From positions 8,171 to 72,170 of the forward strand of contig JBLKOU010000001.1 of assembly GCA_047603125.1 (NCBI GenBank): a stretch of DNA of 64,000 nt, read 5' to 3'. A program made the translations under genes and the position numbers. The DNA comes from Candidatus Woesearchaeota archaeon. GTDB taxonomy: Archaea; Nanobdellota; Nanobdellia; Woesearchaeales; DATGWN01. Positions 9,642-47,997 of this stretch are shown here, piece by piece (the first letter of the stretch is position 1; the number at the start of each line of letters is the position of its first letter). A model generated the notes under the pieces. That model searched no databases and was not told the origin of the DNA. It was given only the letters and a program-made list of their open reading frames with translations.

Positions 9642-9927
9642 GTTGCTTTGCATTCCCATGGTAGAAGAAGGTTTGAATTTGTTTATCGTGGGTGTTTTCT
9701 AACAATTTTTTTATTTTTTCTAATTGTCGTTTTGCTTTCTTTAGACGATAGCTGCATTTGACTTCATACACGCGGATTCTATGCTTGTCTACTTGTAAAA
9801 GGTCAATTTCTGCAATAATTCGTTTTCTTGTAGAAAAGAGCTGATGATTTCTAATGATTTGAGAATTGTTCGTATTAAGCTTTGCTATAAGCTCATCTAG
9901 GTACTGGTCGTGTTTTAGGATTTGCAC
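9628..9927 (-). CDS. hypothetical basic protein (possible PD-(D/E)xK-like small nuclease fold)
   Basis: 99 aa; IAEIDLL...VYEVKCS pattern; weak. Confidence 0.35.
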   Translation of the reverse strand: MQILKHDQYLDELIAKLNTNNSQIIRNHQLFSTRKRIIAEIDLLQVDKHRIRVYEVKCSYRLKKAKRQLEKIKKLLENTHDKQIQTFFYHGNAKQLIEL

Positions 9928-10079
9928 ACCTCAGTATATGCTCTTTGTAGGTTGAAGTATATAAATGCTGTGTTTTTTGGGTGTGGGTGTATCCTCGTTG
10001 TTCAAAACGATAATTTTGTTCATTCATGATAAATAATTTTTTAATGAGATATTGAAACAGAAATAAAAAAGAAAAAAAG

Positions 10080-12578: not shown

Positions 12579-12655
12579 AGTGTCAAACCCCTTAAGTGCT
12601 TCTTTTTCCTTTCTGATTTAAATGTTTTATTACAGGGGCTTCTTTCAATTTTTTT

Positions 12656-12700
12656 AAAAGAGCATGCAGATTTGGCTTAAGAGTCTCGCTTTGAGAATAT
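12656..12700 (+). repeat. repeat family A copy A1 (5' inverted-repeat module only: AAAAGAGCAYGCAGA..TCCCGCTTTGAGA)
   Basis: Matches the first 45 nt of copies at 15302, 31626 and the reverse complement of 26098-26141. Confidence 0.7.
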
Positions 12701-12749
12701 CATCCAACCGGGTTTGTGTAAAAAATCGAATTTTTATTTTACAGCAATA

Positions 12750-12923: not shown

Positions 12924-14045
12924 ATGTTTAAAAAAGAACTAATTAACGTATTGTTTCTACTATTATTAGTAGTGTTAGCTTTCTGGTATTTCGGGGAAGT
13001 TAATGTCGATGATCAAGGACGTGCAATTTCTGCATATGACCCTTTTGGTCAACCAATGAAGACAGAATCGGTGTTTAGCGCTGTGTTTTTAATACCGATT
13101 CTTGCAGTGCTCTTATATACATTTATTATATTTCTTTCAGAAATTGCTGTACATAAACCGCACCTCGATAGATTTTTTGCAAAATTCTTTAGCTTTAAGC
13201 TTATTGTAATCTTTTTGTTCTTTGCAGTCTATTTATCAAAAATATTTGCAAATCAGCAAATGCTCTATATGGAACAATGGATCTTAATTCCAGCAGTAGC
13301 AATTGGATTTTGGTATGTAGGTCATATGTTTGAGCATTTGAAAGGAGATTATTTTGCACCATGGATTCGAAACCGAAGTCAACTTTGGGAAGACACACAT
13401 ATTATTGGTGAATGGTTGTTTAAAATTTGTGCAATTTTAATTTTGTTTGCGCTCTTTGTACCAGATCTCTTATTCGTGTTCTTAGTTGTACCACTTGTTG
13501 CTGTTTTGTTAATGATTTTTGTGTACAGTTTTGTTATTTTTTCAAAAGAACATGCACATCATAAACATCATGAAGAAGTGATGAAGCTAATTCATAAGTC
13601 GCATGATTCATCAACACATCATGTTGTTTCAAAAGCTGCAACGCCTCAAACTGTTGTTGAGCCTGAACCAAAAGTTGCTGTAAAAAAAGCAGCGAAGAAG
13701 GCAAAAAAGACACGCAAAAAGGCTGCAAAGAAAAAAACGACAAAGAAAAAGAAAACAACACGTAAAAAAGCGGTGACAAAAAAAGCAGCTGCAAAGCGTA
13801 CTACAAAGGCTGCGAAAAAAACTGCGAAAAAATCTTCTACGACTAAAAAAGCAAAGACGCGCAAAAAGGCTGCCAAAAAAACAACTGCAAAACGTTCGAC
13901 AAAGGTTGCAAAAAAAGCAGTGAAAAAAGCGTCTGTGCAAAAGAAGCGTACGTCAAAAAAAGCAAAAAAGGCTGTAACAAAAAAAGCAGCGAAAAAGCAA
14001 ACGAAAAAACGTGTTACAAAAAAAGCCGTTAAGAAACGGCGGTAA
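12924..14045 (+). CDS. polytopic membrane protein with histone-H1-like lysine/alanine-rich C-terminal tail
   Basis: GGGGG SD; ~6 TM helices then ~140 aa of KKAAKKTxKK repeats. Confidence 0.6.
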   Translation: MFKKELINVLFLLLLVVLAFWYFGEVNVDDQGRAISAYDPFGQPMKTESVFSAVFLIPILAVLLYTFIIFLSEIAVHKPHLDRFFAKFFSFKLIVIFLFFAVYLSKIFANQQMLYMEQWILIPAVAIGFWYVGHMFEHLKGDYFAPWIRNRSQLWEDTHIIGEWLFKICAILILFALFVPDLLFVFLVVPLVAVLLMIFVYSFVIFSKEHAHHKHHEEVMKLIHKSHDSSTHHVVSKAATPQTVVEPEPKVAVKKAAKKAKKTRKKAAKKKTTKKKKTTRKKAVTKKAAAKRTTKAAKKTAKKSSTTKKAKTRKKAAKKTTAKRSTKVAKKAVKKASVQKKRTSKKAKKAVTKKAAKKQTKKRVTKKAVKKRR

Positions 14046-14388: not shown

Positions 14389-14988
14389 TCAAGAAAGTTG
14401 TTCATTTACAAATTCCCAGTTAATGCGTGTGAGAATTTGTTTGAGGTATTCTGGACGTTTGTTTTGATATGTCAGGTAATATGCATGTTCCCAAACATCG
14501 ATGCCAAGTAATGGCTTCTTTCCTTGGCTTAGAGGAGTATCTTGATTTGGTGTTGAGATAATTTCAAGAGAACCATCGCTATTTTGAACAAGCCATGCCC
14601 ATCCTGAACCAAAGCGTGTAAGTGCTGCGTTAGTTAATTCTTTTTCAAATGCATCATAAGAGCCAAATGTTTGTTCGATGAGTGTGGCAATTTTTCCTTT
14701 ACATTCCTGTTTTTGTGGGCTGAGCATTTGCCAGAAAAGTGTGTGATTATAATGTCCGCCACCATTGTTTTGTACGGCTGTTTTTATGCTATCTGGTAGA
14801 GTTTCTAAATTCTTTAAAAGTTCTTGTATATCTTTTTCAACCAAATCTGGATGGTCTTTAATTGCGTCATTGAGCTTATCAATATAGGTTTGGTGATGCT
14901 TTGTATGGTGAATGCGCATCGTTTTCTCGTCGATAACTGGTTCGAGTGCGTTGTATTCATATGCTAATGATGGTAGTGTGTGTATCAT
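14389..14988 (-). CDS. sod: Fe/Mn superoxide dismutase
   Basis: HHTKHHQTYIDKLN and DVWEHAYYL signatures; start moved to ATG 14988 (MIHTLPSLAYEYNALEP). Confidence 0.9.
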   Translation of the reverse strand: MIHTLPSLAYEYNALEPVIDEKTMRIHHTKHHQTYIDKLNDAIKDHPDLVEKDIQELLKNLETLPDSIKTAVQNNGGGHYNHTLFWQMLSPQKQECKGKIATLIEQTFGSYDAFEKELTNAALTRFGSGWAWLVQNSDGSLEIISTPNQDTPLSQGKKPLLGIDVWEHAYYLTYQNKRPEYLKQILTRINWEFVNEQLS

Positions 14989-15043
14989 AGGGATGTGTAT
15001 GTTTTCATCTTTTAAAAAATTAGTGAAGGTTTGATTTTTCTTT

Positions 15044-15225
15044 ATTGAGAGTTTCGCGGGTATAATACCCCGGACTTTAGTCCGCAAACTCTCAATTCAA
15101 AAGTTCGCGATTAGGTGAGAAGCGTAATACCCCGTCCCTTTAGGGCGGGGATACCTAGAAAAATTCCTAGTTTTCTGGGTTTGAAAAACTTGTGTTTTTC
15201 AATTAGCTTCGAGCAGCGAACTTTT
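15044..15225. other. inverted-repeat-rich structured intergenic region (three local hairpins closed by a 10-bp long-range helix)
   Basis: IR 15044-15059/15082-15096; GC-rich hairpin 15130-15150; AU hairpin 15181-15202; AAAAGTTCGC (15099-15108) pairs with GCGAACTTTT (15216-15225). Confidence 0.3.
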
Positions 15226-15301
15226 GTTATTCTAGTCGAGAGTGCCATATATCTTTGTTTGAAAGCTATTTTTACTTGTTTTATGTAATAATTATTTTTT
15301 T

Positions 15302-15409
15302 AAAAGAGCACGCAGATTTTGCTCAAGAGTCCCGCTTTGAGATTTGTGCGAAAATTCGTCTGCAAACAATCGCCAAATTTTCTGATTTTACTGCAAGGTG
15401 CTCTTTTTT
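15302..15409 (+). repeat. repeat family A copy A2 (complete short form, ~108 nt, terminal inverted repeats AAAAGAGCACGCAG / CTGCAAGGTGCTCTTTT)
   Basis: Near-identical to 31626-31732; TIRs are reverse complements. Confidence 0.8.
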
Positions 15410-15474
15410 CTTATTCCTTGGACGGGGTTTTCTTTAGCAAAACATTTTAAAAGGGTAAATCTCTCAAGAATGCT

Positions 15475-16503
15475 ATGTGGTATCAAACTTTAGGGTTTTC
15501 TTCGTATCCTTTGGATCCAAGAAGTAATCCCAATTTAATTGGCGTTTCTGATAAGGAAGAAGAGCTTGTAAATTATATTCGCTCAGGAACAATGTGCCTA
15601 CTTTCTGGCTTTACAGGAAGTGGGAAGACGAGTATGCTTGAACGGGTATCGAAGAGAAAAGATTTGTCCCAGTTTCGATTTATTTTTATATCTGCAGACG
15701 GCGTGAAAAAAAATTATGATATTCAGGATGCTATTAAGGAAGCGCGCTCCTTTGTTGATCTGATTACTTTTAAAAAACCGCGAAATATTGTTGTACTTTT
15801 GGATGAATCACACCTTGCGAACAGAATATTAACTGAGTCGATTAAGAGTAAATGGAATTACATTTATCCAGATGGAACAAAGATGATTCAATCCGTTGTT
15901 GTTTCTCAAATTGAATCGCAATTAGGGACGAATTTCTCAGGTTCATTTGTTGACCGATTAGGAAAGCGTGTTGTTAAAATGCGCCGGCTCACACATGAGG
16001 AGTTACAAGAAGTTTTGCGTTTGCGGTTAGATAATGGCAAGCAAAATTATATTGATTATTTTGCAAAGTCAGGTTTGAATTTTCTTTGCACAAGTGCAGA
16101 TGGTTCCGTTCGTCAATTATTAGAGTATACTGATGTATTATTTCGAAAACTTGTTGAAATGGATGCATTTGCAAAAGATGATTTTGAAATTGATAAACCT
16201 GTTGTATTTAATTTGTTACAAGCAAGTGGGCTTGTCAGCGAGCAAAAACCGAAATTCAACAAAGGACAATTTGACAAGGTCTTAGCAAATAAGCGGTATA
16301 TGGCAGCAGTTGAAATGTTTGAGCAGTTTGGTGCATTAAGTTGTGTTACACTGGCAGAAAAGCTGGATGTGACAAAACAAACGGCACAAAAACTCTTGCG
16401 TGAGCTCAAGCAAAAAGAAGTTATTTTGCAATCACATATTGAAGATGGGGAAGAGTGCTTTGTGTTGACACCTCGTGTGAAACATGAATTGGTACGACAA
16501 TGA
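15475..16503 (+). CDS. AAA+ ATPase with C-terminal winged-helix domain (divergent Orc1/Cdc6-like?)
   Basis: Walker A GFTGSGKTS, Walker B VVLLDES, C-terminal wHTH; Orc1/Cdc6 assignment is inference. Confidence 0.55.
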   Translation: MWYQTLGFSSYPLDPRSNPNLIGVSDKEEELVNYIRSGTMCLLSGFTGSGKTSMLERVSKRKDLSQFRFIFISADGVKKNYDIQDAIKEARSFVDLITFKKPRNIVVLLDESHLANRILTESIKSKWNYIYPDGTKMIQSVVVSQIESQLGTNFSGSFVDRLGKRVVKMRRLTHEELQEVLRLRLDNGKQNYIDYFAKSGLNFLCTSADGSVRQLLEYTDVLFRKLVEMDAFAKDDFEIDKPVVFNLLQASGLVSEQKPKFNKGQFDKVLANKRYMAAVEMFEQFGALSCVTLAEKLDVTKQTAQKLLRELKQKEVILQSHIEDGEECFVLTPRVKHELVRQ

Positions 16504-25921: not shown

Positions 25922-25991
25922 TTGTGAAATATTTAGGGCTTATCTTTTTTAAAAATGTTTAGGATGATAAGGCTTCATCCAAAAAATAAGA

Positions 25992-26141
25992 AAAAAGAGC
26001 ACCTTGCAGCAAAATCAGAAAATTTAGTGATTGTTTGAAAGCTTCTTTCAAACTTGAGGATGAGAATCCGAAAAGTTGCAACTAATTTTTCGCATACTTC
26101 TCAAAGCGGGACTCTTGAGCCAAGTCTGCGTGCTCTTTTTT
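25992..26141 (-). repeat. repeat family A copy A4 (long form with ~45-nt internal hairpin module B inserted)
   Basis: Reverse complement carries both TIRs; internal perfect hairpin GTTTGAAAG-CTT-CTTTCAAAC; shares module B with 42619-42696. Confidence 0.8.
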
Positions 26142-26238
26142 GAAAACAATTATTGGATGAAGTCGGACGAAAAATAAAAGAATATACGCATGCACAAGCA
26201 ATAATTTTATAAACACATATCAGGCAGCTCATACTACG

Positions 26239-31575: not shown

Positions 31576-31625
31576 GATAGGGTAGTGCATTATCAAGAAC
31601 GGTTTCATCCAATAATTGTTTTCAG

Positions 31626-31732
31626 AAAAGAGCACGCAGACTTGACTCAAGAGTCCCGCTTTGAGAAGTATGCGAAAATTCGCTTGTATGAATCACCGAA
31701 TTTTCTAATTATACTGCAAGGTGCTCTTTTTT
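31626..31732 (+). repeat. repeat family A copy A3 (complete short form with TIRs)
   Basis: ~90% identical to 15302-15409. Confidence 0.8.
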
Positions 31733-31765
31733 CTTATTTTTTGGATGAAGCCATCAAGAACCAAA

Positions 31766-32281: not shown

Positions 32282-32648
32282 TGAGTTCACTCTCCATTTT
32301 TTTTCGATTATATTGGATTCTGTTGTTAAAATCGTTACCTTCTTTTTTGGATAAGGTTCCATAAAACTTATGCAAAAATTTATTAGCAGGTTGCGTCCTT
32401 TTTGTTAAGTCTAAAATTACTTGTGAGTAACTTCGTAACCCCTTTATTTGATTTAATGCCTCAATTGCCTGGGCGTTGAGTTCTATGGTCTTTTGGTTAT
32501 AATTGACTTGACTATCTTGGAGTATTATGTCTGAAAAACTTTTTTTTCCCTTTTTTCTTTTCAGATATTTGTACGCCTCATCCTTGATTGTAATATTTTT
32601 TACTATAACAAGTACTTGTGCAAGTAAAGAGTTATATATTTTATGCAA
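32268..32648 (-). CDS. vapB: VapB-like antitoxin (overlaps vapC start by 14 nt)
   Basis: ITIKDEAYKYLKRKKGKKSFSDIILQ matches the archaeal antitoxin motif (TIxxDEVYExLKxLKG.xSFSDVI); TTG start at 32648 uncertain. Confidence 0.45.
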   Translation of the reverse strand: MHKIYNSLLAQVLVIVKNITIKDEAYKYLKRKKGKKSFSDIILQDSQVNYNQKTIELNAQAIEALNQIKGLRSYSQVILDLTKRTQPANKFLHKFYGTLSKKEGNDFNNRIQYNRKKMESELNDRS

Positions 32649-32694
32649 ATCCTGAAGAAATCTTTTTAAAGGGGGTGTATTTTGCTATATTTAT

Positions 32695-32765
32695 GGGCGG
32701 ATGGCCAAGCAGTAAGGCAAGAGGCTGCAACCCTCTCATCCCGGGTGCAATTCCCGGTCCGCCCT
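32695..32765 (+). tRNA. tRNA-Cys (anticodon GCA)
   Basis: Acceptor GGGCGGA/UCCGCCC, anticodon stem AGAGG/CCUCU with loop CUGCAAC, T arm CCGGG-UGCAAUU-CCCGG; 71 nt. Confidence 0.7.
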
Positions 32766-32804
32766 TTTCTTTTCTAAAAAGCAACAATTCATATATTACG
32801 ATAG

Positions 32805-33125
32805 TTGAAGAATGGTATGGAATTAATAGAACAATATGTGAGAGGCATACGAGTTCAATTTCTGGGATTTTCTTTGTTTCTTATGCTCATTTCTGCGCTT
32901 TTTTTTCTCATTCGTGAACCATTGGTTGGAGGATTGATTCTTACCTGGAGTTTACTCTATTTGCTTTGTTGGCACATATTCAAAAAACCAGGAAACGGGC
33001 GATGGTTATTTGCACTTATTCTTGCGATTCTCGCGACACCTTTGATTCCTATTGGCACAATTTTTGCTTTGTTTGTTCTTGTTCGGTTATTATCAAGGGA
33101 AGTACGTGATTATTATTTTCAATAG
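32805..33125 (+). CDS. small membrane protein (3 TM), hypothetical
   Basis: Hydrophobic 106-aa ORF. Confidence 0.35.
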   Translation: MKNGMELIEQYVRGIRVQFLGFSLFLMLISALFFLIREPLVGGLILTWSLLYLLCWHIFKKPGNGRWLFALILAILATPLIPIGTIFALFVLVRLLSREVRDYYFQ

Positions 33126-33234
33126 AGACGCCGGAATCTTGCAATTTAGTGCCAGGTGTTTTTGTGTCTTCTTGTTTGGATGGGAACTTGAGTAATCCAA
33201 AAGATTCTTAAAGGAAAATTAACCAAATATATGT

Positions 33235-40274: not shown

Positions 40275-40297
40275 ACAAGTGGTTCTTTTTTGTGTAC

Positions 40298-40462
40298 ATG
40301 AAGTGCGCAATTACAGGAAAACCAATCGAAAAAACATTTCTCGATAAGCTTATTGGAACTGTCATTAAAGATGAGAATGGAAAAAAGTATTATGTGAGTG
40401 CACAGGCACAGCAAAAATATAAAACAAAAGCTGAACTTTTAAAACAGCTCTCATCCAAATAG
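40298..40462 (+). CDS. small hypothetical protein (54 aa)
   Basis: Internal ATG of 90-aa ORF; MKCAITGKPIEKTFLDKLIG... Confidence 0.25.
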   Translation: MKCAITGKPIEKTFLDKLIGTVIKDENGKKYYVSAQAQQKYKTKAELLKQLSSK

Positions 40463-40466
40463 AACA

Positions 40467-40538
40467 AGCCCCTGGCGTGATTTGAACACGCGACCTTTTG
40501 CTTACGAGGCAAACGCTCTACCACTGAGCTACAGAGGC
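40467..40538 (-). tRNA. tRNA-Thr (anticodon CGT)
   Basis: Reverse complement GCCUCUGUAGCUCAGUGGUAGAGCGUUUGCCUCGUAAGCAAAAGGUCGCGUGUUCAAAUCACGCCAGGGGCU; anticodon loop CUCGUAA; no CCA encoded. Confidence 0.85.
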
Positions 40539-40564
40539 TTATTTTTACTGAAAACAAGTCCCTC

Positions 40565-40574
40565 TTTATAATAA
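40565..40574 (-). promoter_or_regulatory. candidate TATA box for tRNA-Thr
   Basis: TTATTATAAA (minus strand) 27-36 nt upstream of tRNA 5' end. Confidence 0.3.
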
Positions 40575-40599
40575 TTTTGGAGATTTAGTCTAAGACAGA

Positions 40600-40730
40600 A
40601 GTAAATTCTAATGCGACGATTCTGAACAGTGGTTCATCTTGCGAATTTCTCCGGCGCAGAGCTTCGCGAAATTCTGATTATGCGCCAAGGCATTATAATT
40701 TTTTATTGTCGCTAACTAATTTTTTGACTG
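40600..40730. repeat. repeat family C module C2 (contains GGCGCA...TGCGCC inverted repeat and GCGCCAAGGCATTATAATTTTTTATTGTCGCTAACTAA tail)
   Basis: Homologous to 42700-42850 and partly 12750-12860. Confidence 0.5.
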
Positions 40731-40760
40731 TAAATTAAGAATGACTATATTTTTTTTATA

Positions 40761-41390: not shown

Positions 41391-41558
41391 GTTGGTATGA
41401 TTGATTTTGTTTTATAAGAATTATGTGTGTAACTATTTGAAAATTTTTCGGTTTTTACGCATTAATAATTATCTAAATAAGCTCTCTGTAAGCATACTTT
41501 TGGAAAAAATATAGCAAATATTTTTAAATAAAGAGTGCCAAAAGGACTATAAAAAGAG

Positions 41559-42599
41559 GTGTATGGGGTGTCTAGTTTTTTTACAACGGGGTATGGGCAA
41601 GTTCTTATTGTCTTTGCAATTCTATTCTTAACACACATTATTACTAGACTTATTCGAAAATTATTGAATTTTTACTTTGAAAAACATAATAAACGACATC
41701 AATCTCGCGTATCATTAACACAGCAAGCTCTTGTTCGTCATTTTATCGGCTTTATTATTTATTTGTTAGGTATTGGAGTTGCTATTTATACCGTTCCATC
41801 CTTGCGTTCATTGTCTATTTCATTGTTTGCGGGGGCGGGTGTTCTTGCAATTATCGTTGGTTTTGCATCCCGTGAGGCATTTTCAAATATTGTGAGTGGT
41901 ATTTTTATAGGAATTTTTATTCCATTTCGTGTTGGAGATATTATTTCATTAAAAGATGATATTTTGGGTGTTGTGGAAGATATTAATATGCGTCACACAA
42001 CACTTCGTACATTTGAGAACAAGCGAGTTATTATTCCAAATATGGTGATGAATGACGCAATTATTACCAATTTTAGTATTAATGATGAGCAAATGTGTCG
42101 CTTTGTTGATTTTGATATTAGCTATGACTCGGATATTGATCTTGCGATGAAAATTATGCAAGAACAGGCAGAAAAACATCCGTATTGTTTAGATATACGA
42201 ACCGGTGATCAGAAAAAACAACAAGTTCCAAAAGTTACTGTTCGAGTTATTAAACTCGGTGAGCATTATATTCGATTACGTGCATGGGTGTGGGCTGCAA
42301 ATCCAAGCGAAGCGTTTGTTCTTGGTTGTGACTTGAATAAGTCCATAAAAGAAGAATTTGATGCACAGGGTGTTGAAATTCCATTCCCTTACAGAACAAT
42401 GGTGATGAAAAAGGATTTACCAAAAGCAAAAAAATTGAGTGCGAAGCAAAAAAAAGCAGTGCAAAAACGTTTTGCAAATGCACTTTCTCCTATTCCAAAA
42501 GCAGTAGAAGATGATTCTGTTCAAAAACATGAAACGCTTTTGAATAAGTTAGCAAATATTAAACAATCGCTTTCTTCGAATTCACAAAAAGAAAAATAG
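41559..42599 (+). CDS. mscS: MscS-family small-conductance mechanosensitive channel
   Basis: 3 TM then FASREAFSNIVSGIFIGIFIPFRVGDIISL...GVVEDINMRHTTLRTFENKRVIIPN. Confidence 0.85.
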   Translation: MYGVSSFFTTGYGQVLIVFAILFLTHIITRLIRKLLNFYFEKHNKRHQSRVSLTQQALVRHFIGFIIYLLGIGVAIYTVPSLRSLSISLFAGAGVLAIIVGFASREAFSNIVSGIFIGIFIPFRVGDIISLKDDILGVVEDINMRHTTLRTFENKRVIIPNMVMNDAIITNFSINDEQMCRFVDFDISYDSDIDLAMKIMQEQAEKHPYCLDIRTGDQKKQQVPKVTVRVIKLGEHYIRLRAWVWAANPSEAFVLGCDLNKSIKEEFDAQGVEIPFPYRTMVMKKDLPKAKKLSAKQKKAVQKRFANALSPIPKAVEDDSVQKHETLLNKLANIKQSLSSNSQKEK

Positions 42600-42618
42600 A
42601 TGTAACGCCATTCTTAGA

Positions 42619-42696
42619 AAAAAGAGCACCTTGGCGAAAGGTTAGAAAATTCAGTGATTGGTTGAAAGCTTCTTTCAAACTTGAGGATGAGAATCC
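42619..42696 (-). repeat. repeat family A copy A5 (partial: one TIR plus hairpin module B)
   Basis: Matches 25992-26080 over ~78 nt, then continues into family C module. Confidence 0.7.
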
Positions 42697-42699
42697 GAA

Positions 42700-42850
42700 A
42701 AGTTGCTAGTAAATAGTCGACGACATTAATTTCGCATAACTCGGCGATTTCACGACAGCTGTCAAGTTTGCAAAATCAGAGCTGCATGAATCGCTCTGAT
42801 TTTTGATTTTACGCCAAGGAGTTATGCTTTTCTTTTGCCGCTAACTAAAA
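42700..42850. repeat. repeat family C module C3 (contains 10-bp inverted repeat AAATCAGAGC/GCTCTGATTT)
   Basis: Tail TTACGCCAAGGAGTTATGCTTTTCTTTTGCCGCTAACTAAAA matches C2. Confidence 0.5.
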
Positions 42851-44229: not shown

Positions 44230-47200
44230 ATGGTCAGGAGTTTTCGATTATGTATGCACACGCAAGAAGAATTCACCATAGATAGGCAGCGCTATGATAG
44301 CGCAAATGAGGAGCGTTTACTCTATCGTGCAAAGGATGGGATTAGCGAGCAGCTTGTTAGAGAAATCTCAAAAAGCAAAAATGAGCCTGAGTGGATGCTT
44401 CAAAAGCGATTAAAGGGTTTTGAGCTGTTTTTAAAGATGGAAAATCCAACATGGGGGCCATCGCTTGAAAAATTAGATTTATCAAAAATTTCTTACTTTT
44501 TGCGTCCAGATGCAAAGAAAAATGCTACGAGTTGGGATGATGTCCCTGATGATATCAAAAATACATTTGATAAGCTGGGAATTCCAAAAGCAGAACGAGA
44601 AGCATTGGCTGGAGTTGGTGCACAATATGATTCTGAAACCGTGTATCATAATTTACAAAAAGAATTACAAGATCAAGGAGTGGTGTTTATTGATTGCGAT
44701 GAGGCTGTTCACAAATATCCTGATTTAGTAAAAAAATATTTTATGACAAGCTGTGTTCCTATGAATTTACATCGATATAGTGCGCTTCATGCTGCTGTTT
44801 GGTCGGGAGGGACATTTATTTATATTCCTAAGGGAGTCAAAGTAGAAAAGCCATTGCAAGCATACTTTCGTATGAATGCACGAAAAGGTGGGCAATTTGA
44901 GCATACGCTTATTATTGTTGATGAGGGTGCGGAGGTTTCTTATATTGAAGGGTGTTTTGGGGCAGGGACGCAGATAACGACAAATCCTGATTATAAGCCA
45001 ATTGAGCAAATTCGCTCAGGTGAAAAAATACTGACAAGCGAAGGAGAGTTTAAGCATTCAAAAGATATTCAAGCACAGCCATATACGGGTAAAATGGCAA
45101 AAATCCAACTCTGGGGTGATACGACGCAAACAATTAACGTGACGCAAGAACATCCATTTTTATATGTTGATAAAAAGCATGCTCGTGAGAAAAATAAGCA
45201 GTTTACTCCTCGCTGGAACATGCCAGCATATTTTCAAAAAGGAGATTATTTATGTATGCCGATTAATCAAGTTGTAAAACACAACGACGAACATACATTT
45301 GTGTATTTACGCCATATTGATGGGAAACGTGAACGCGTAGAATGGCCAGTTCAGGTGTCTGCAGAATTATTTCGGTTAATAGGGTACTATTTAGCACAAG
45401 GAAGTGTGAGTAGTAATGCGTATTTGAATTTTTCATTTCATTTTCAAGAGCGAGAGTATATTGAAGATGTGAAAAGATGTTTGAAAAAAGTATTTGGGAT
45501 AAAAAAAATACTGGAAATGCACCATAAAAAAAATAATGGGACGAGTTTAGTCGTTTGTTCTGTTGATTTGGCAAGAATCTTTAAAGAATTTGGAAAGAGC
45601 GCAAATACAAAATCATTGCCTGCATGGGTGATTTATGAAAAACCGCATCTACAAAAAGAACTGATTAAGGGCTGGTTTAGAGGGGATGGAAATTATTTTA
45701 AGAAAAAAACAGTTTCAGGGTTAAAAGAAGCAATACGAATAAATACGGTGAGTGAAAAATTGGCAAAACAGGCTCGTGATTTATTATTGCGTCAAGGCAT
45801 AGTTTCCTTTATTAATTCACAAGATCGTCAATCGACAAATAGACAAACTATGTATACTATAGGAATTGGCGGTGAATTTCTTCCCAAAATGGGGGAGCTT
45901 GTTGGAATTTCAATTTCAAAAACACTGAATGGGAAAAAGCGTGCGAGTATGTTCGGGATTGACAAGAAATTTGCATATATTCCTATACGTTCGATTACAT
46001 TTGAACAAGTAACAAATTATCCGGTATATAATTTTGGTGTGACTGATCATCAAACATTTACTGCTGGTGGCGTTGCCGTTCATAATTGCTCAGCTCCGGT
46101 ATACACTGAGAATTCGCTCCATGCAGGATGTGTAGAAATTCATGTCCTCAAAGGTGCAAGAGCAAGATATTCAAGTATTGAGAATTGGTCCAAAAATACG
46201 TATAATCTTAATACAAAGCGTGCCGTTGTTCATGATGATGGAATAATTGAATGGATTAACGGCAATTTAGGTTGCCTAACAGATTCATCAAAGGTATTTA
46301 CTAATCCCCGCGGTCCAAAAAATATATCTGCAATTTCACCGGGAGACAAAGTGCTCAGCTATGATTTTCAAGCAAAAAAAATTGTTCCTGGCACGGTTAA
46401 GCAAATGGTTTATAATGGGGATAGGGAGATTTTTGAAATAACGGCTGCAGGAAGAAGTTTAGAAGCAACTCAAAATCATCCTTTTTTAACATTAAGTAAG
46501 ACTCAAGATAATCCAAAAAAAAATTTTTATTCATATCAATGGAAACCATTGTCTCAGTTACAAGTGGGCGATATGATTTGTGTTACAAAAAACATTCCAA
46601 ACAAAGGCGAGTCTTTTCGTATACCTGCATTATCAGAATATTTACACGTTCAATCCAAAAATCAATATGCGTCTTTTTCCATGTCAACCAAACACCTCCA
46701 TAATTCGAAGATTACTATTCCAAAAAAGACCAATCCTGATTTGATGTGGCTATTAGGATTATTAATAGGGGATGGTTTTGTGGATGTTTCGCAAAATAAA
46801 ATTAATATTGCAACACATTATCTTGAAGATTATAGAGAATCGCAACTCATACGAATTCTTAAAGAGCAATTTAATTATACTGTAACTGAGAAAAAAGAAC
46901 GTTTTGTCATTATTAATTCGAAAAAACTTTGTGAATTATTTACAGTTCTTGGAGTATCGGGTACAGCAAAAACAAAACGTATACCTAATTGGGTTTATAC
47001 GCTTCCTGAAATTGAGATGGAGGCTTTTTTGGGAGGCTATTTTGATGCTGATGGACACGTACAAAAAAATGGTGCGTATTTAACAAGTTGTAATAAATCT
47101 TTATTAGAAGATTTTCGTTTATTGGCAATTCAATTAGGGTATGGTATTTCAAGAATATTTAAACATATGTCTGAGGGTACGAGAACAATTTTAGGGGTTG

Positions 47201-47997
47201 ATTGTATTGCTTCAGATAGTTTTCGATTGTTACTCAGTGGAGAAAAAATTTGTTCACTTGATTCGCGTTCGAAAAAGAAAAAGGCAAAGCTTTTACAAAT
47301 TACGTCAAAAAGAAATTTTCGAACAGCAAAGAATCAAAATTTCTCTTCAAAAACAACGGATGAAATTGGCTTTGCAAGAATTGATGCTATTATAAAAAAA
47401 GGTATACGTCCCACATTTGATATTGAGGTTGAAAAATATCACAATTTTATTGCTAATGGGCTGATTGTACATAATAGCGGAGTCACGATGCTCTACCCGG
47501 GTTCAATGTTGATGGGTGATCGTTCAAAATCTGATTTTATTGGTATTGCGCTAGCTAATAAAGATCAAAACCAAGATACTGGTTGTAAAATTATTCATAT
47601 CGGTGAGCAGACATCATCAACGATTACTTCCAAATCAATTAGTCTTAATGGCGGTATTTCAACATATCGTGGATTAGTGAGTATCCGAAAAGGTGCGAAA
47701 GGAGCAGCAACTAGTGTGGAGTGTGATGCGCTCATGATTGATAATGAGAGTCAATCAAATACATATCCGTATATGGATATTCATGAAAAAGATGTTGACG
47801 TTGCACATGAGGCTACTGTAGGAAAAATAAGTGAAGAGCAAATATTTTATTTAATGAGTCGTGGGTTGAGTGAAGAAGTTGCAAAGCAAATGATAGTTTC
47901 TGGTTTTATAGAACCAATTGTCAAAGAATTGCCACTTGAGTATGCAGTTGAATTAAATAAACTCATTGAATTAGAAATGGAGGGGAATTTAGGATGA
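44230..47997 (+). CDS. sufB: Fe-S cluster assembly protein SufB interrupted by two inteins
   Basis: Extein segments match SufB (DEGAEVSYIEG|CSAPVYTENSLHAG..., IEWINGNLG|SGVTMLYPGSMLMGD..., C-terminal SRGLSEEVAKQMIVSGF); 1255 aa = ~476 extein + 378 + 401 intein residues. Confidence 0.9.
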   Translation: MVRSFRLCMHTQEEFTIDRQRYDSANEERLLYRAKDGISEQLVREISKSKNEPEWMLQKRLKGFELFLKMENPTWGPSLEKLDLSKISYFLRPDAKKNATSWDDVPDDIKNTFDKLGIPKAEREALAGVGAQYDSETVYHNLQKELQDQGVVFIDCDEAVHKYPDLVKKYFMTSCVPMNLHRYSALHAAVWSGGTFIYIPKGVKVEKPLQAYFRMNARKGGQFEHTLIIVDEGAEVSYIEGCFGAGTQITTNPDYKPIEQIRSGEKILTSEGEFKHSKDIQAQPYTGKMAKIQLWGDTTQTINVTQEHPFLYVDKKHAREKNKQFTPRWNMPAYFQKGDYLCMPINQVVKHNDEHTFVYLRHIDGKRERVEWPVQVSAELFRLIGYYLAQGSVSSNAYLNFSFHFQEREYIEDVKRCLKKVFGIKKILEMHHKKNNGTSLVVCSVDLARIFKEFGKSANTKSLPAWVIYEKPHLQKELIKGWFRGDGNYFKKKTVSGLKEAIRINTVSEKLAKQARDLLLRQGIVSFINSQDRQSTNRQTMYTIGIGGEFLPKMGELVGISISKTLNGKKRASMFGIDKKFAYIPIRSITFEQVTNYPVYNFGVTDHQTFTAGGVAVHNCSAPVYTENSLHAGCVEIHVLKGARARYSSIENWSKNTYNLNTKRAVVHDDGIIEWINGNLGCLTDSSKVFTNPRGPKNISAISPGDKVLSYDFQAKKIVPGTVKQMVYNGDREIFEITAAGRSLEATQNHPFLTLSKTQDNPKKNFYSYQWKPLSQLQVGDMICVTKNIPNKGESFRIPALSEYLHVQSKNQYASFSMSTKHLHNSKITIPKKTNPDLMWLLGLLIGDGFVDVSQNKINIATHYLEDYRESQLIRILKEQFNYTVTEKKERFVIINSKKLCELFTVLGVSGTAKTKRIPNWVYTLPEIEMEAFLGGYFDADGHVQKNGAYLTSCNKSLLEDFRLLAIQLGYGISRIFKHMSEGTRTILGVDCIASDSFRLLLSGEKICSLDSRSKKKKAKLLQITSKRNFRTAKNQNFSSKTTDEIGFARIDAIIKKGIRPTFDIEVEKYHNFIANGLIVHNSGVTMLYPGSMLMGDRSKSDFIGIALANKDQNQDTGCKIIHIGEQTSSTITSKSISLNGGISTYRGLVSIRKGAKGAATSVECDALMIDNESQSNTYPYMDIHEKDVDVAHEATVGKISEEQIFYLMSRGLSEEVAKQMIVSGFIEPIVKELPLEYAVELNKLIELEMEGNLG
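44953..46086 (+). mobile_element. SufB intein 1 with LAGLIDADG homing-endonuclease domain
   Basis: Starts Cys (CFGAGTQ), ends HN before +1 Cys (CSAPVY); DOD motifs LIGYYLAQGSV and IKGWFRGDGNY. Confidence 0.85.
46273..47475 (+). mobile_element. SufB intein 2 with LAGLIDADG homing-endonuclease domain
   Basis: Starts Cys (CLTDSS), ends GLIVHN before +1 Ser (SGVTM); DOD motifs LLGLLIGDGFVD and FLGGYFDADGHV. Confidence 0.85.

Follow-up and report, generated by a model that had tools for sequence, protein, structure and literature searches.

The closest described counterparts of the sequences analysed here are PATEs (palindrome-associated transposable elements) and the RNAs made from the 3′ ends of archaeal tnpB genes. 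An 8-bp 'RE-like tetraloop' hairpin with a UUCA or UUUA loop has been reported from HgcC, from PATE-derived RNAs and from the 3′ transcripts of archaeal tnpB genes; Halobacterium expresses PATE-derived RNAs, and their over-expression has an effect on growth (PMC4615843). PATEs have been described together with relics that consist of termini only (PMC3119063), and the transcription of such elements in archaea is known (PMC4615843, PMC3119063, PMC10055086).

We compared with these systems a 486-nt spacer (14989–15474) on a contig of a Candidatus Woesearchaeota archaeon. All positions are those of the window, i.e. the whole 64-kb stretch of DNA that was analysed. Like an archaeal oriC, the spacer is a long stretch between genes that precedes an Orc/Cdc6-like gene and contains both an AT-rich tract and a repeated motif with G and C, and the earlier note had proposed it as a candidate replication origin or a structured RNA. 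We lean towards a mosaic reading, in which small sequences from non-autonomous mobile elements lie where the sod and AAA+ promoters diverge. With ORFs called from ATG only, it is tied as the second longest gap, in keeping with its description as one of the longest in the window. The features of the spacer and its borders are as follows.

14389–14988, minus strand: sod, Fe/Mn superoxide dismutase (Pfam Sod_Fe_C, 4.6e-41; Sod_Fe_N, 9.6e-29), the left boundary of the spacer
15010–15019, both orientations possible: palindromic TATA-like box TTTTAAAAAA, assigned as the sod promoter
15044–15096, plus strand: hairpin A, with an 11-bp perfect stem, a three-way junction and the small hairpins GGGUA/UACCC and GGAC/GUCC
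15063–15095, plus strand: unit 1, TAATA-CCCCGGAC-TTTA-GTCCGC-AAACTC-TCAA, which resembles a TnpB right end (hairpin, 6 nt, TCAA) in degenerate form
15098–15226, plus strand: module B, a four-way junction bearing three hairpins, set within a 9-bp helix, an internal loop and an outer, perfect 11-bp helix
15130–15150, plus strand: H1, GC-rich hairpin CCCCGUCCC-UUUA-GGGCGGGG, the type known as 'RE-like tetraloop' at IS200/IS605 (TnpB/IS1341) ends
15153–15180 and 15182–15201, plus strand: H2 and H3, A/U-rich hairpins of the four-way junction
15277–15429, plus strand: decayed copy of the family A MITE, holding the AT-rich stretch 15283–15307
15445–15452, plus strand: TATA box TTTTAAAA of the AAA+ gene, which fits the genome promoter pattern ACATTTWTAAA
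15475–16503, plus strand: AAA+ ATPase with a C-terminal winged helix (342 aa), to the right of the spacer

Across the genes of this genome, the end of the TATA 8-mer lies 21–23 nt ahead of the ATG. The sod ATG is 22 nt downstream of its TATA 8-mer, and TTTTAAAA lies 22 nt ahead of the AAA+ ATG at 15475, a layout that recurs upstream of the homologues of this gene; the AAA+ mRNA appears to be leaderless. Where the same promoter spacing is read from the TTTTAAAAAA box on the plus strand, it stops 2–5 nt short of hairpin A. The box is thus a possible divergent promoter, for which the sequence would place a plus-strand transcript start near 15039–15042. A T-rich tract lies downstream of the module, after 15226.

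The region 15044–15226 comprises 183 bp of nested palindromes and has the most stable predicted fold of the whole window on either strand. Taken as 15040–15230, it folds at −79.5 kcal/mol on the plus strand (z −7.73 relative to shuffles) and at −72.0 kcal/mol on the minus strand (z −7.89), the plus-strand fold being better by 7.5 kcal/mol. None of 200 shuffles folded as stably, and the region ranked first among 1,596 sliding 190-nt windows on both strands (plus-strand mean −37.7, sd 7.0). Eight helices with short loops take up around two-thirds of its bases and form a compact three-way junction and a compact four-way junction.

The inverted repeat that the earlier note placed at 15044–15096 exists, but has 11 perfect base pairs (15044–15054/15086–15096) rather than 15; it closes the small three-way junction of hairpin A. 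A long-range helix was likewise correctly recognized but is 11 bp and perfect (15098–15108/15216–15226) rather than 10 bp, and an additional 9-bp helix (15119–15128/15202–15210) closes the four-way junction. The GC-rich hairpin CCCCGTCCC/GGGCGGGG is present, at 15130–15150, while the single AU hairpin proved to be two, H2 and H3. Module B spans 129 bp with no evident target duplication. All of its pairs are Watson–Crick except for three G·U pairs, each of which lies on the plus strand and is an A·C mismatch on the minus strand. No second copy of module B was found in the window or in any of the loci retrieved for comparison, and no relatives of H2 or H3 were found.

Exact matches to the H1 21-mer occur at the left end of an element encoding a 390-aa TnpB (locus L036) and, in locus L037, 7 nt past a C-terminal fragment of TnpB. 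A model built from 48 TnpB right ends (R2) scored H1 at 26.1 bits (E 4e-4 for the whole window) on the plus strand only, with 9.9 bits on the minus strand. H1 fits the sub-terminal, strand-specific 8-bp GC-rich hairpin of these ends, with its U·G wobble and UUYA loop; covariation is seen within this IS200/IS605 family hairpin. The pattern GAATCCCCG..CGGGG..TCAA was found at at least 120 IMG/VR loci. A TnpB RuvC-III motif lies no more than 330 nt upstream in 71 of 125 matches, and the free interior of the matches is mostly TCCTT(T/C)AGGG, as in H1. A 36-nt hairpin consensus matched 3,028 plasmid records, and several of the top matches coincide with annotated TnpB.

This likeness is confined to the hairpin. 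R2 aligns over model positions 11–31 only; the H1 flanks are TAATA and ATACCTAGAA, with neither the GAAT 5′ of the hairpin nor the AGGATG-TCAA tail (the cleavage site) 3′ of it. The GAAT and AGGATGTCAA flanks of the TnpB elements similarly have no match around H1, so that the shared part is the 21–22-nt hairpin alone, and comparison with 113 right-end regions gave no similarity to the ωRNA scaffold. No transposase was detected in Pfam scans of 41 ORFs of the window, tblastn with a TnpB matched neither the window nor any of 30 loci from related archaea, and neither tnpA nor tnpB was seen in them. Separately, we noted that a 19-nt core of the hairpin is also a terminator-like hairpin in an unrelated phage, and there is therefore a small chance that H1 converged on the TnpB hairpin.

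Unit 1 lies 62 nt upstream of the GC-rich hairpin, is degenerate and has the same orientation. It has in common with unit 2 (the H1 unit) the 10-mer TAATACCCCG and CTTTAG. It also resembles the right end of L036, GAAT-CCCCGGTCTTTAGGCCGGGG-GTGGAG-TCAA, with a TCAA 6 nt past the hairpin, and gives a weak R2 score of 5.8 bits.

A family A repeat had been noted in the spacer, and it is indeed present at 15277–15429, with an inner 10-bp stem AAAAGAGCAC/GTGCTCTTTT (15302–15311/15398–15407). The AT-rich stretch was also confirmed, with seven T residues instead of the eight reported. nhmmer identified other family A copies at 31603–31765 and 12648–12747 and 33124–33204 (plus strand) and at 26160–25950 and 42673–42614 (minus strand), i.e. 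at least six copies in 64 kb; the elements are 152–194 bp long and have no coding capacity. At 31601–31752 the copy ends in the inverted repeats GGTTTCATCCAA/TTGGATGAAGCC and is flanked by a perfect target duplication of 9 bp, ATCAAGAAC, and the copy at 26164–25971 has a 7/9 target duplication. With terminal inverted repeats, target duplication, several non-coding copies, family A is a textbook MITE. The proposed DNA unwinding element (DUE) aligns inside it. A collinear likeness between hairpin A and the family A core was not significant by nhmmer and was dropped.

The assignment of the 342-aa AAA+ protein to Orc1/Cdc6 stands in part. The Walker A and B motifs, the lid and the C-terminal winged helix are present and the nearest folds are Orc/Cdc6, but family-level models do not recognize it: NCBIfam orc1/cdc6 and Pfam Cdc6_C gave no match, and its best family matches are to generic AAA domains (E ~1e-4). 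In a profile search against the PDB, Cdc6/Orc1 appeared only at E 0.006–0.04. Its identity to Orc1/Cdc6 is ∼15%, with RuvB, RFC, TnsC and DnaA scoring only slightly lower, and it differs further in having a distinctive conserved N-terminal motif, W..LGF..YPLDPRSNPNL.G. The motif specific to initiators is an extra helix after β2; the predicted structure has two helices (83–90 and 93–98) between β2 and β3. The winged helix is MarR/HTH_11-like. The family is conserved in Woesearchaeota and Nanobdellota, the protein of the closest relative being 70% identical. This unannotated Orc/Cdc6-like family of Woesearchaeota may merit a study of its own, as to whether it is an initiator paralogue or something else.

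If the spacer were a chromosomal origin, possibly a minor or dormant one, the TAATACCCCG..CTTTAG units would act as ORB-like sites beside an AT-rich unwinding element, together with an inverted partial copy at 15420–15431, and the adjacent Orc/Cdc6-like protein would bind them. The motif TACCCCGKMC (with up to one mismatch) does occur eight times in the window, where 2.3 would be expected, and three of these occurrences are in the spacer; two direct copies and one inverted copy surround the AT-rich tract, and the nearest structures of the downstream protein are those of Cdc6/Orc1. Genes for GyrA, a DnaG-like Toprim protein and topoisomerase VI, all replication-related, lie near the spacer, which would also suit an origin. 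The GC skew argues against this reading. Within the 64-kb window there is no switch at 15 kb and the skew is positive on both sides: it is +0.03 to +0.24 in all 2-kb windows except one (−0.014, 10–12 kb), and the cumulative skew climbs monotonically from a minimum at position 344. This is independent of gene orientation, with means of 0.125 for 46 plus-strand genes and 0.114 for 24 minus-strand genes. In ∼8 relatives' loci, the skew does change from negative to positive at the AAA+ gene, but there it tracks gene orientation and was therefore rejected as evidence of an origin. The arrangement is also not conserved. The spacer that precedes the homologous gene in 25 relatives ranges from 23 to 655 nt and is 250 nt or shorter in 19, the five longest being 471–655 nt; in the two closest relatives it is 29 nt (86 nt by the gene calls of the record) and 112 nt. 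The neighbouring genes vary (RLI/ABCE1, ParE, adenylate kinase), and the 15044–15226 module is found in none of the 25. The mini-ORB core, which we take to be TTCCAGTGGAAAC, has no match in the spacer at up to three mismatches. Finally, the repeated unit matches a transposon hairpin, the adjacent protein reaches no Orc1/Cdc6 HMM, and both the AT-rich tract and the inverted third motif lie within the decayed MITE copy, the latter in a mutated terminal repeat where we judged it a chance occurrence. The proposal of a replication origin is thus not supported, and we regard even a minor one as very improbable. An operator cluster is comparably hard to sustain, although the palindromes lie between divergent promoters, include repeated and inverted motifs and adjoin a gene whose MarR/HTH_11-like product would be a candidate binder in the control of sod, the AAA+ gene or both. 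The helices nest in one compact multi-branched fold instead of forming spaced dyads, the motifs are missing upstream of AAA+ homologues, both promoters lie outside the module (each ∼22 nt from its own start codon) and the key motif is accounted for by the transposon hairpin, so that such a function is highly unlikely.

A structured RNA deserves more credit, although we still consider it unlikely. Here the module would be, or lie within, a lineage-specific plus-strand ncRNA gene of ∼190–250 nt, with helices under selection, that contains or has co-opted the transposon-type hairpin. It might serve as an orphan ωRNA-like guide or decoy, or in regulation, expressed along with sod from the TATA box that the two share. 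The extreme, largely paired and multiply branched fold, the restriction of G·U pairs to the plus strand, the consensus-like TATA box at the right distance and the downstream T-rich tract are all compatible with a plus-strand transcript, and the Halobacterium RNAs cited above provide a precedent. Against this, the helices are near-perfect Watson–Crick on both strands, resembling young DNA palindromes, and no family or homologue was identified. Rfam 15, including SRP RNA, RNase P RNA and HgcC, gave no match in the spacer at the gathering score and nothing meaningful to E 10 (best E 2.5 or worse, well under threshold); the only matches at threshold in the window were three tRNAs. The three-way junction and long closing helix recall the layout of SRP RNA, but the helix-8 motifs are absent. 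A minus-strand 10-mer, AAAGUCCGGG, resembles CR-I of RNase P RNA, but lies at the wrong module end, and an RNase P RNA completed from there would run into sod. 5S rRNA, H/ACA and C/D RNAs and riboswitches were considered, again with no Rfam match. No module homologue was found by nhmmer in the window and 30 loci, by a single-sequence model (R1) in 432 kb of DNA from related archaea and in TnpB loci totalling 0.9 Mb, or by blastn of phage and plasmid collections. A metagenome scan with TAATACCCCGN{7,15}CGGGGATACC returned five unrelated GC-rich contigs, and viral scans gave 0 matches to the hairpin A unit and 0 to the family A core. In the absence of a module homologue there is therefore no covariation evidence. 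The more specific proposal, that 15044–15226 is a selected and expressed ∼190-nt RNA built around a domesticated TnpB-type right-end hairpin, divergent from the sod TATA box and with a new regulatory or decoy role, seems to us improbable. If true, it would represent an orphan RNA, ωRNA-like or derived from a PATE, in a DPANN archaeon that has no TnpB close by.

The mobile-element mosaic is the most likely explanation: on this reading the hairpin-rich gap would be largely ordinary, made up of a transposon-type hairpin module and a MITE copy. The spacer would be long and rich in inverted repeats because non-coding sequences derived from mobile elements sit between the sod and AAA+ promoters. One piece would be the 183-bp palindrome module, as a PATE-like or terminal-only transposon relic with no adjoining tnpA or tnpB; the other would be an old copy of the scattered 152–194-bp MITE, bringing the AT-rich stretch. 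What is shown is that the inverted repeats belong to these elements themselves and do not serve to bind an initiator. By analogy with its family, the IS200/IS605-type hairpin would be recognized by TnpA in single-stranded DNA and would form the 3′ stem-loop in the guide RNA (ωRNA) of TnpB. Plus-strand transcription of the module is probable; it would start ∼25 nt past the palindromic TATA box shared with sod and terminate in the T-rich tract that follows 15226, giving a highly stable RNA of ∼190–250 nt, comparable to the PATE-derived intergenic RNAs of haloarchaea. Also counting against the mosaic are the following: the module is single-copy within the window; a perfect inverted repeat of 11 bp closes module B, where PATEs are defined as lacking inverted terminal repeats; and the remaining helices (∼50 bp, nearly all Watson–Crick) have no identified source.

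A long, inverted-repeat-rich spacer beside an Orc/Cdc6-like gene is insufficient for calling an archaeal origin; small mobile elements can mimic the picture, with repeats, GC hairpins and AT-rich tracts. If our reading is correct, even a small DPANN genome holds MITEs and IS200/IS605-derived palindromic relics at its promoters, where such elements can be transcribed and can reshape intergenic regions.

Compared with an archaeal oriC, the locus differs in having no skew switch and no conserved arrangement, in the mobile-element derivation of its repeats and AT-rich tract, and in a gene that is not Orc1/Cdc6 at the family level. SMR-A of Haloquadratum is ∼110 bp long, with prominent inverted terminal repeats and no target duplication, and is associated with PATEs. 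Module B resembles it in size and shape (129 bp, 11-bp perfect terminal inverted repeats). Unlike SMRs and MITEs, however, module B occurs once in the window and no relative of it was detected, and whereas SMR-A inserts into a PATE palindrome, here the palindrome is inside the repeat-bounded module. PATEs combine non-coding sequence and palindromes close to the ends, related to those of IS605, with a lack of terminal inverted repeats and of target duplication; the module has one clear palindrome and one weak one, no evident target duplication and 11-bp inverted repeats at its bounds. It differs from PATEs in that H1 lacks the GAAT and AGGATGTCAA flanks and sits inside a four-way junction that helices of 11 bp and 9 bp close, in the missing ωRNA scaffold likeness, in the single copy seen and in having no tnpB or tnpA in view. 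Like PATEs and the tnpB 3′ RNAs (VNG_R0052, HgcC; ωRNA/sotRNA), the module is non-coding and intergenic, and its H1 has an 8–9-bp GC-rich stem with the same U·G wobble and UUUA loop on one strand only. Its degenerate second unit, in direct orientation, also recalls fused left-end and right-end palindromes.

The window, from a Candidatus Woesearchaeota MAG, is ordinary chromosome. Its genes include gyrA, a DnaG-like Toprim protein, a PpiC-type isomerase, sod, ribosomal proteins L31e and S19e, thymidine kinase, an OB-fold protein, RIO1, topoisomerase VI A and B, RLI/ABCE1, SufB/SufD/SufS and three tRNAs; no tnpA or tnpB was in view. Intein sequences enlarge the SufB gene (44230-47997; 1,255 aa), in which Intein_splicing, two LAGLIDADG_3 stretches and Hint-type domains were recognised. 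A membrane protein (12924-14045) has an SdpI-like region and a long Lys/Ala/Thr-rich C-terminal tail, which consists of imperfect tandem repeats of ~96-105 nt each (13682-14022).

The spacer and its structured module (hairpin A and module B)
14989-15474: spacer; sod (minus strand) on one side, 342-aa AAA+/winged-helix gene (plus strand) on the other
15044-15096: hairpin A; 11-bp perfect stem closing a three-way junction
15098-15226: module B, one base after hairpin A; 11-bp perfect closing helix, internal loop, 9-bp helix, four-way junction
15130-15150: H1; GC-rich hairpin on the module B four-way junction, beside two A/U-rich hairpins

The structures of the module are real and statistically extreme. 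The fold of 15040-15230 gave −79.5 kcal/mol (z −7.73) on the plus strand and −72.0 kcal/mol (z −7.89) on the minus strand, and the module ranked top in stability among 1,596 sliding 190-nt windows on both strands (plus strand mean −37.7, sd 7.0). The earlier description of the spacer as rich in inverted repeats was accurate, except that the 15-bp repeat and the 10-bp long-range helix are both 11 bp. The module is present once in the window and, outside H1, had no detectable relative in the relatives' loci, the TnpB loci or the phage and plasmid collections. Four further non-coding gaps are also long (9642-10079, 32363-32816, 40275-40760 and 41391-41987; 438-597 nt). Two have tRNAs inside, and all fold less stably than the module; a GTG-started MscS-like ORF may cover part of the last.

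A replication origin, which the earlier note had put forward as a candidate, is very unlikely at this locus: skew, conservation in relatives, the identity of the AT-rich ‘DUE’ and a mini-ORB search all failed to support one. The cumulative skew curve climbs throughout, from 344 to 64000, and does not bend at 15 kb. GC skew was above zero in all 2-kb windows but one and was unrelated to gene orientation, with means of 0.125 for the 46 plus strand genes and 0.114 for the 24 minus strand genes. Therefore, the whole window looks like a single replichore. This skew is strong (~+0.12 mean, read on the plus strand, for the genes of either strand). Several relatives differ: their skew changes sign near the AAA+ gene in step with gene orientation, and so is uninformative about an origin. 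We fetched the surroundings of the homologous gene in 25 relatives; the upstream spacer ranged from 23 to 655 nt (≤250 nt in 19 of the 25), and none of these loci held module-like sequence. In the two closest relatives (~70% identity) the upstream neighbour is RLI/ABCE1 in divergent orientation, and the spacers measure 29 nt (86 nt with the gene calls of the record itself) and 112 nt. A small 2Fe-2S ferredoxin gene often comes after the AAA+ gene. The mini-ORB core was absent from the spacer and occurred at chance frequency in the window.

The ‘DUE’ (15283-15307) makes up the 5′ portion of a copy of family A, a dispersed repeat that is a MITE.

Family A copies found by nhmmer, in addition to the spacer copy (15277-15429)
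31603-31765, plus strand
26160-25950, minus strand
12648-12747, plus strand
42673-42614, minus strand
33124-33204, plus strand

The 152-bp copy at 31601-31752 has terminal inverted repeats GGTTTCATCCAA/TTGGATGAAGCC, with a perfect 9-bp direct repeat, ATCAAGAAC, on either side; a 194-bp copy (26164-25971) has a 7/9 duplication. The terminal repeats of the spacer copy have decayed, and its mutated 3′ repeat (GGACGGGGTT vs GGATGAAGCC in other copies) produced the inverted ‘third motif’ that mimicked ORBs flanking the DUE. Several copies stop 12-30 nt upstream of the TATA box of a downstream gene or tRNA; these boxes fit the genome promoter pattern ACATTTWTAAA, in which the 8-mer ends 21-23 nt ahead of the start codon. 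Members of family A are 152-194 bp long, with 12-bp terminal inverted repeats and a 9-bp target duplication. At least six lie within 64 kb of this small DPANN genome, one directly upstream of tRNA-Arg (31803), and none was found in relatives or public collections. Long forms hold an extra ~42-nt insert (25989-26092 vs 42616-42719, 88% identical).

The AAA+ protein has the same sequence as NCBI ACMXYF_00150, which is encoded on a 76.8-kb contig. Its 61 homologues come chiefly from Woesearchaeota and Nanobdellota MAGs, some under other names, with weak 24-25% matches in Aenigmatarchaeota; Walker A, Walker B and several Arg and Asn positions are invariant. No Pfam or NCBIfam Orc1/Cdc6 model matched, and sequence and profile matches to PDB Cdc6/Orc1 entries were marginal (E 0.006-0.04). 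The protein is predicted to function in the manner of winged-helix AAA+ proteins of the Orc/Cdc6 type, and may or may not be a member of the Orc1/Cdc6 family. This unannotated family of ~345 aa (15475-16503 and relatives' loci L001-L030), conserved mainly in Woesearchaeota and Nanobdellota, has Cdc6/Orc1 as its nearest fold, yet matches none of the Orc1/Cdc6 sequence models. Its N-terminal motif W..LGF..YPLDPRSNPNL.G is invariant.

H1 probably derives from a transposon. Its 21-mer CCCCGTCCCTTTAGGGCGGGG, scanned for exact matches, occurred in two IMG/VR contigs. In L036 it lies ~166 nt upstream of a 390-aa TnpB (matching OrfB_IS605, Cas12f1-like TNB and HTH_OrfB_IS605), i.e. at the left end, and the right end reads GAAT-CCCCGGTCTTTAGGCCGGGG-GTGGAG-TCAA. 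In L037 it lies 7 nt past a TnpB C-terminal fragment ending ...HDRDINAAKNIL. Rfam 15 matched neither element. The generalised pattern GAATCCCCGN{7,12}CGGGGN{5,8}TCAA matched at least 120 IMG/VR loci, with a TnpB RuvC-III motif ≤330 nt upstream in 71 of 125 matches; the unconstrained interior was mostly TCCTT(T/C)AGGG, with the same wobble and loop as H1. A 36-nt consensus matched 3,028 bacterial and haloarchaeal plasmid records, TnpB being annotated under several best matches. In a covariance model of 48 such ends the distal pairs covary. On H1 the model reached 26.1 bits (E 4e-4 across 64 kb; minus strand 9.9 bits), aligning the hairpin only and leaving out the GAAT and AGGATGTCAA flanks. The repeated motif TAATACCCCG..CTTTAG (15063-15081 and 15125-15143) corresponds to two units of this hairpin type. 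The first looks like a right end, with TCAA 6 nt after its hairpin, though in degenerate form and at a weak score (5.8 bits).

Across bacteria, archaea and phage contigs, conservation of the TnpB right-end segment GAATCCCCG-TCCTT(T/C)AGGG-CGGGG-AGGATG-TCAA is extraordinary (L036 2281-2301 and 900-935; L037 641-680; three copies in a further locus, L054).

The module is likely to be transcribed, by prediction. A palindromic TATA box, TTTTAAAAAA (15010-15019; box 15010-15017), is separated from the sod ATG by 22 nt and, on its other side, from the first module helix by ~27 nt; read in the latter direction, it predicts a start at ~15039-15042, just ahead of hairpin A, and a T-rich tract follows the closing helix of module B. 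This box could be a bidirectional promoter. Further points in favour of an RNA are a fold stability unmatched by any other window, the plus strand orientation of H1 and the non-Watson-Crick pairs, which are G.U on the plus strand in three of three cases. However, near-perfect helices, with a minus strand fold nearly as stable, are what young palindromes in DNA would show; Rfam gave no match to the module or spacer, and covariation is absent because no homologue of the module was found. We consider an independently selected RNA unlikely, and an exapted ωRNA-like RNA more doubtful still.

The preferred explanation for the spacer is a patchwork of palindromic sequences that derive from small mobile elements, lie between two promoters and are possibly transcribed. 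We infer that the module may be a relic like a palindrome-associated transposable element (PATE), because it has one strong motif, one weak motif and a neighbouring MITE. PATEs, terminal-only relics and small repeats associating with PATEs have been described (PMC3119063), and PATEs carrying ωRNA have been noted (PMC10055086). H1 corresponds to a hairpin already described as the ‘RE-like tetraloop’ (8-bp stem; loop UUCA or UUUA), which is found 3′-terminally in archaeal IS1341-type tnpB transcripts and also in intergenic PATE-derived RNAs and HgcC RNAs (PMC4615843). On this reading the locus adds one more example of element types already known.
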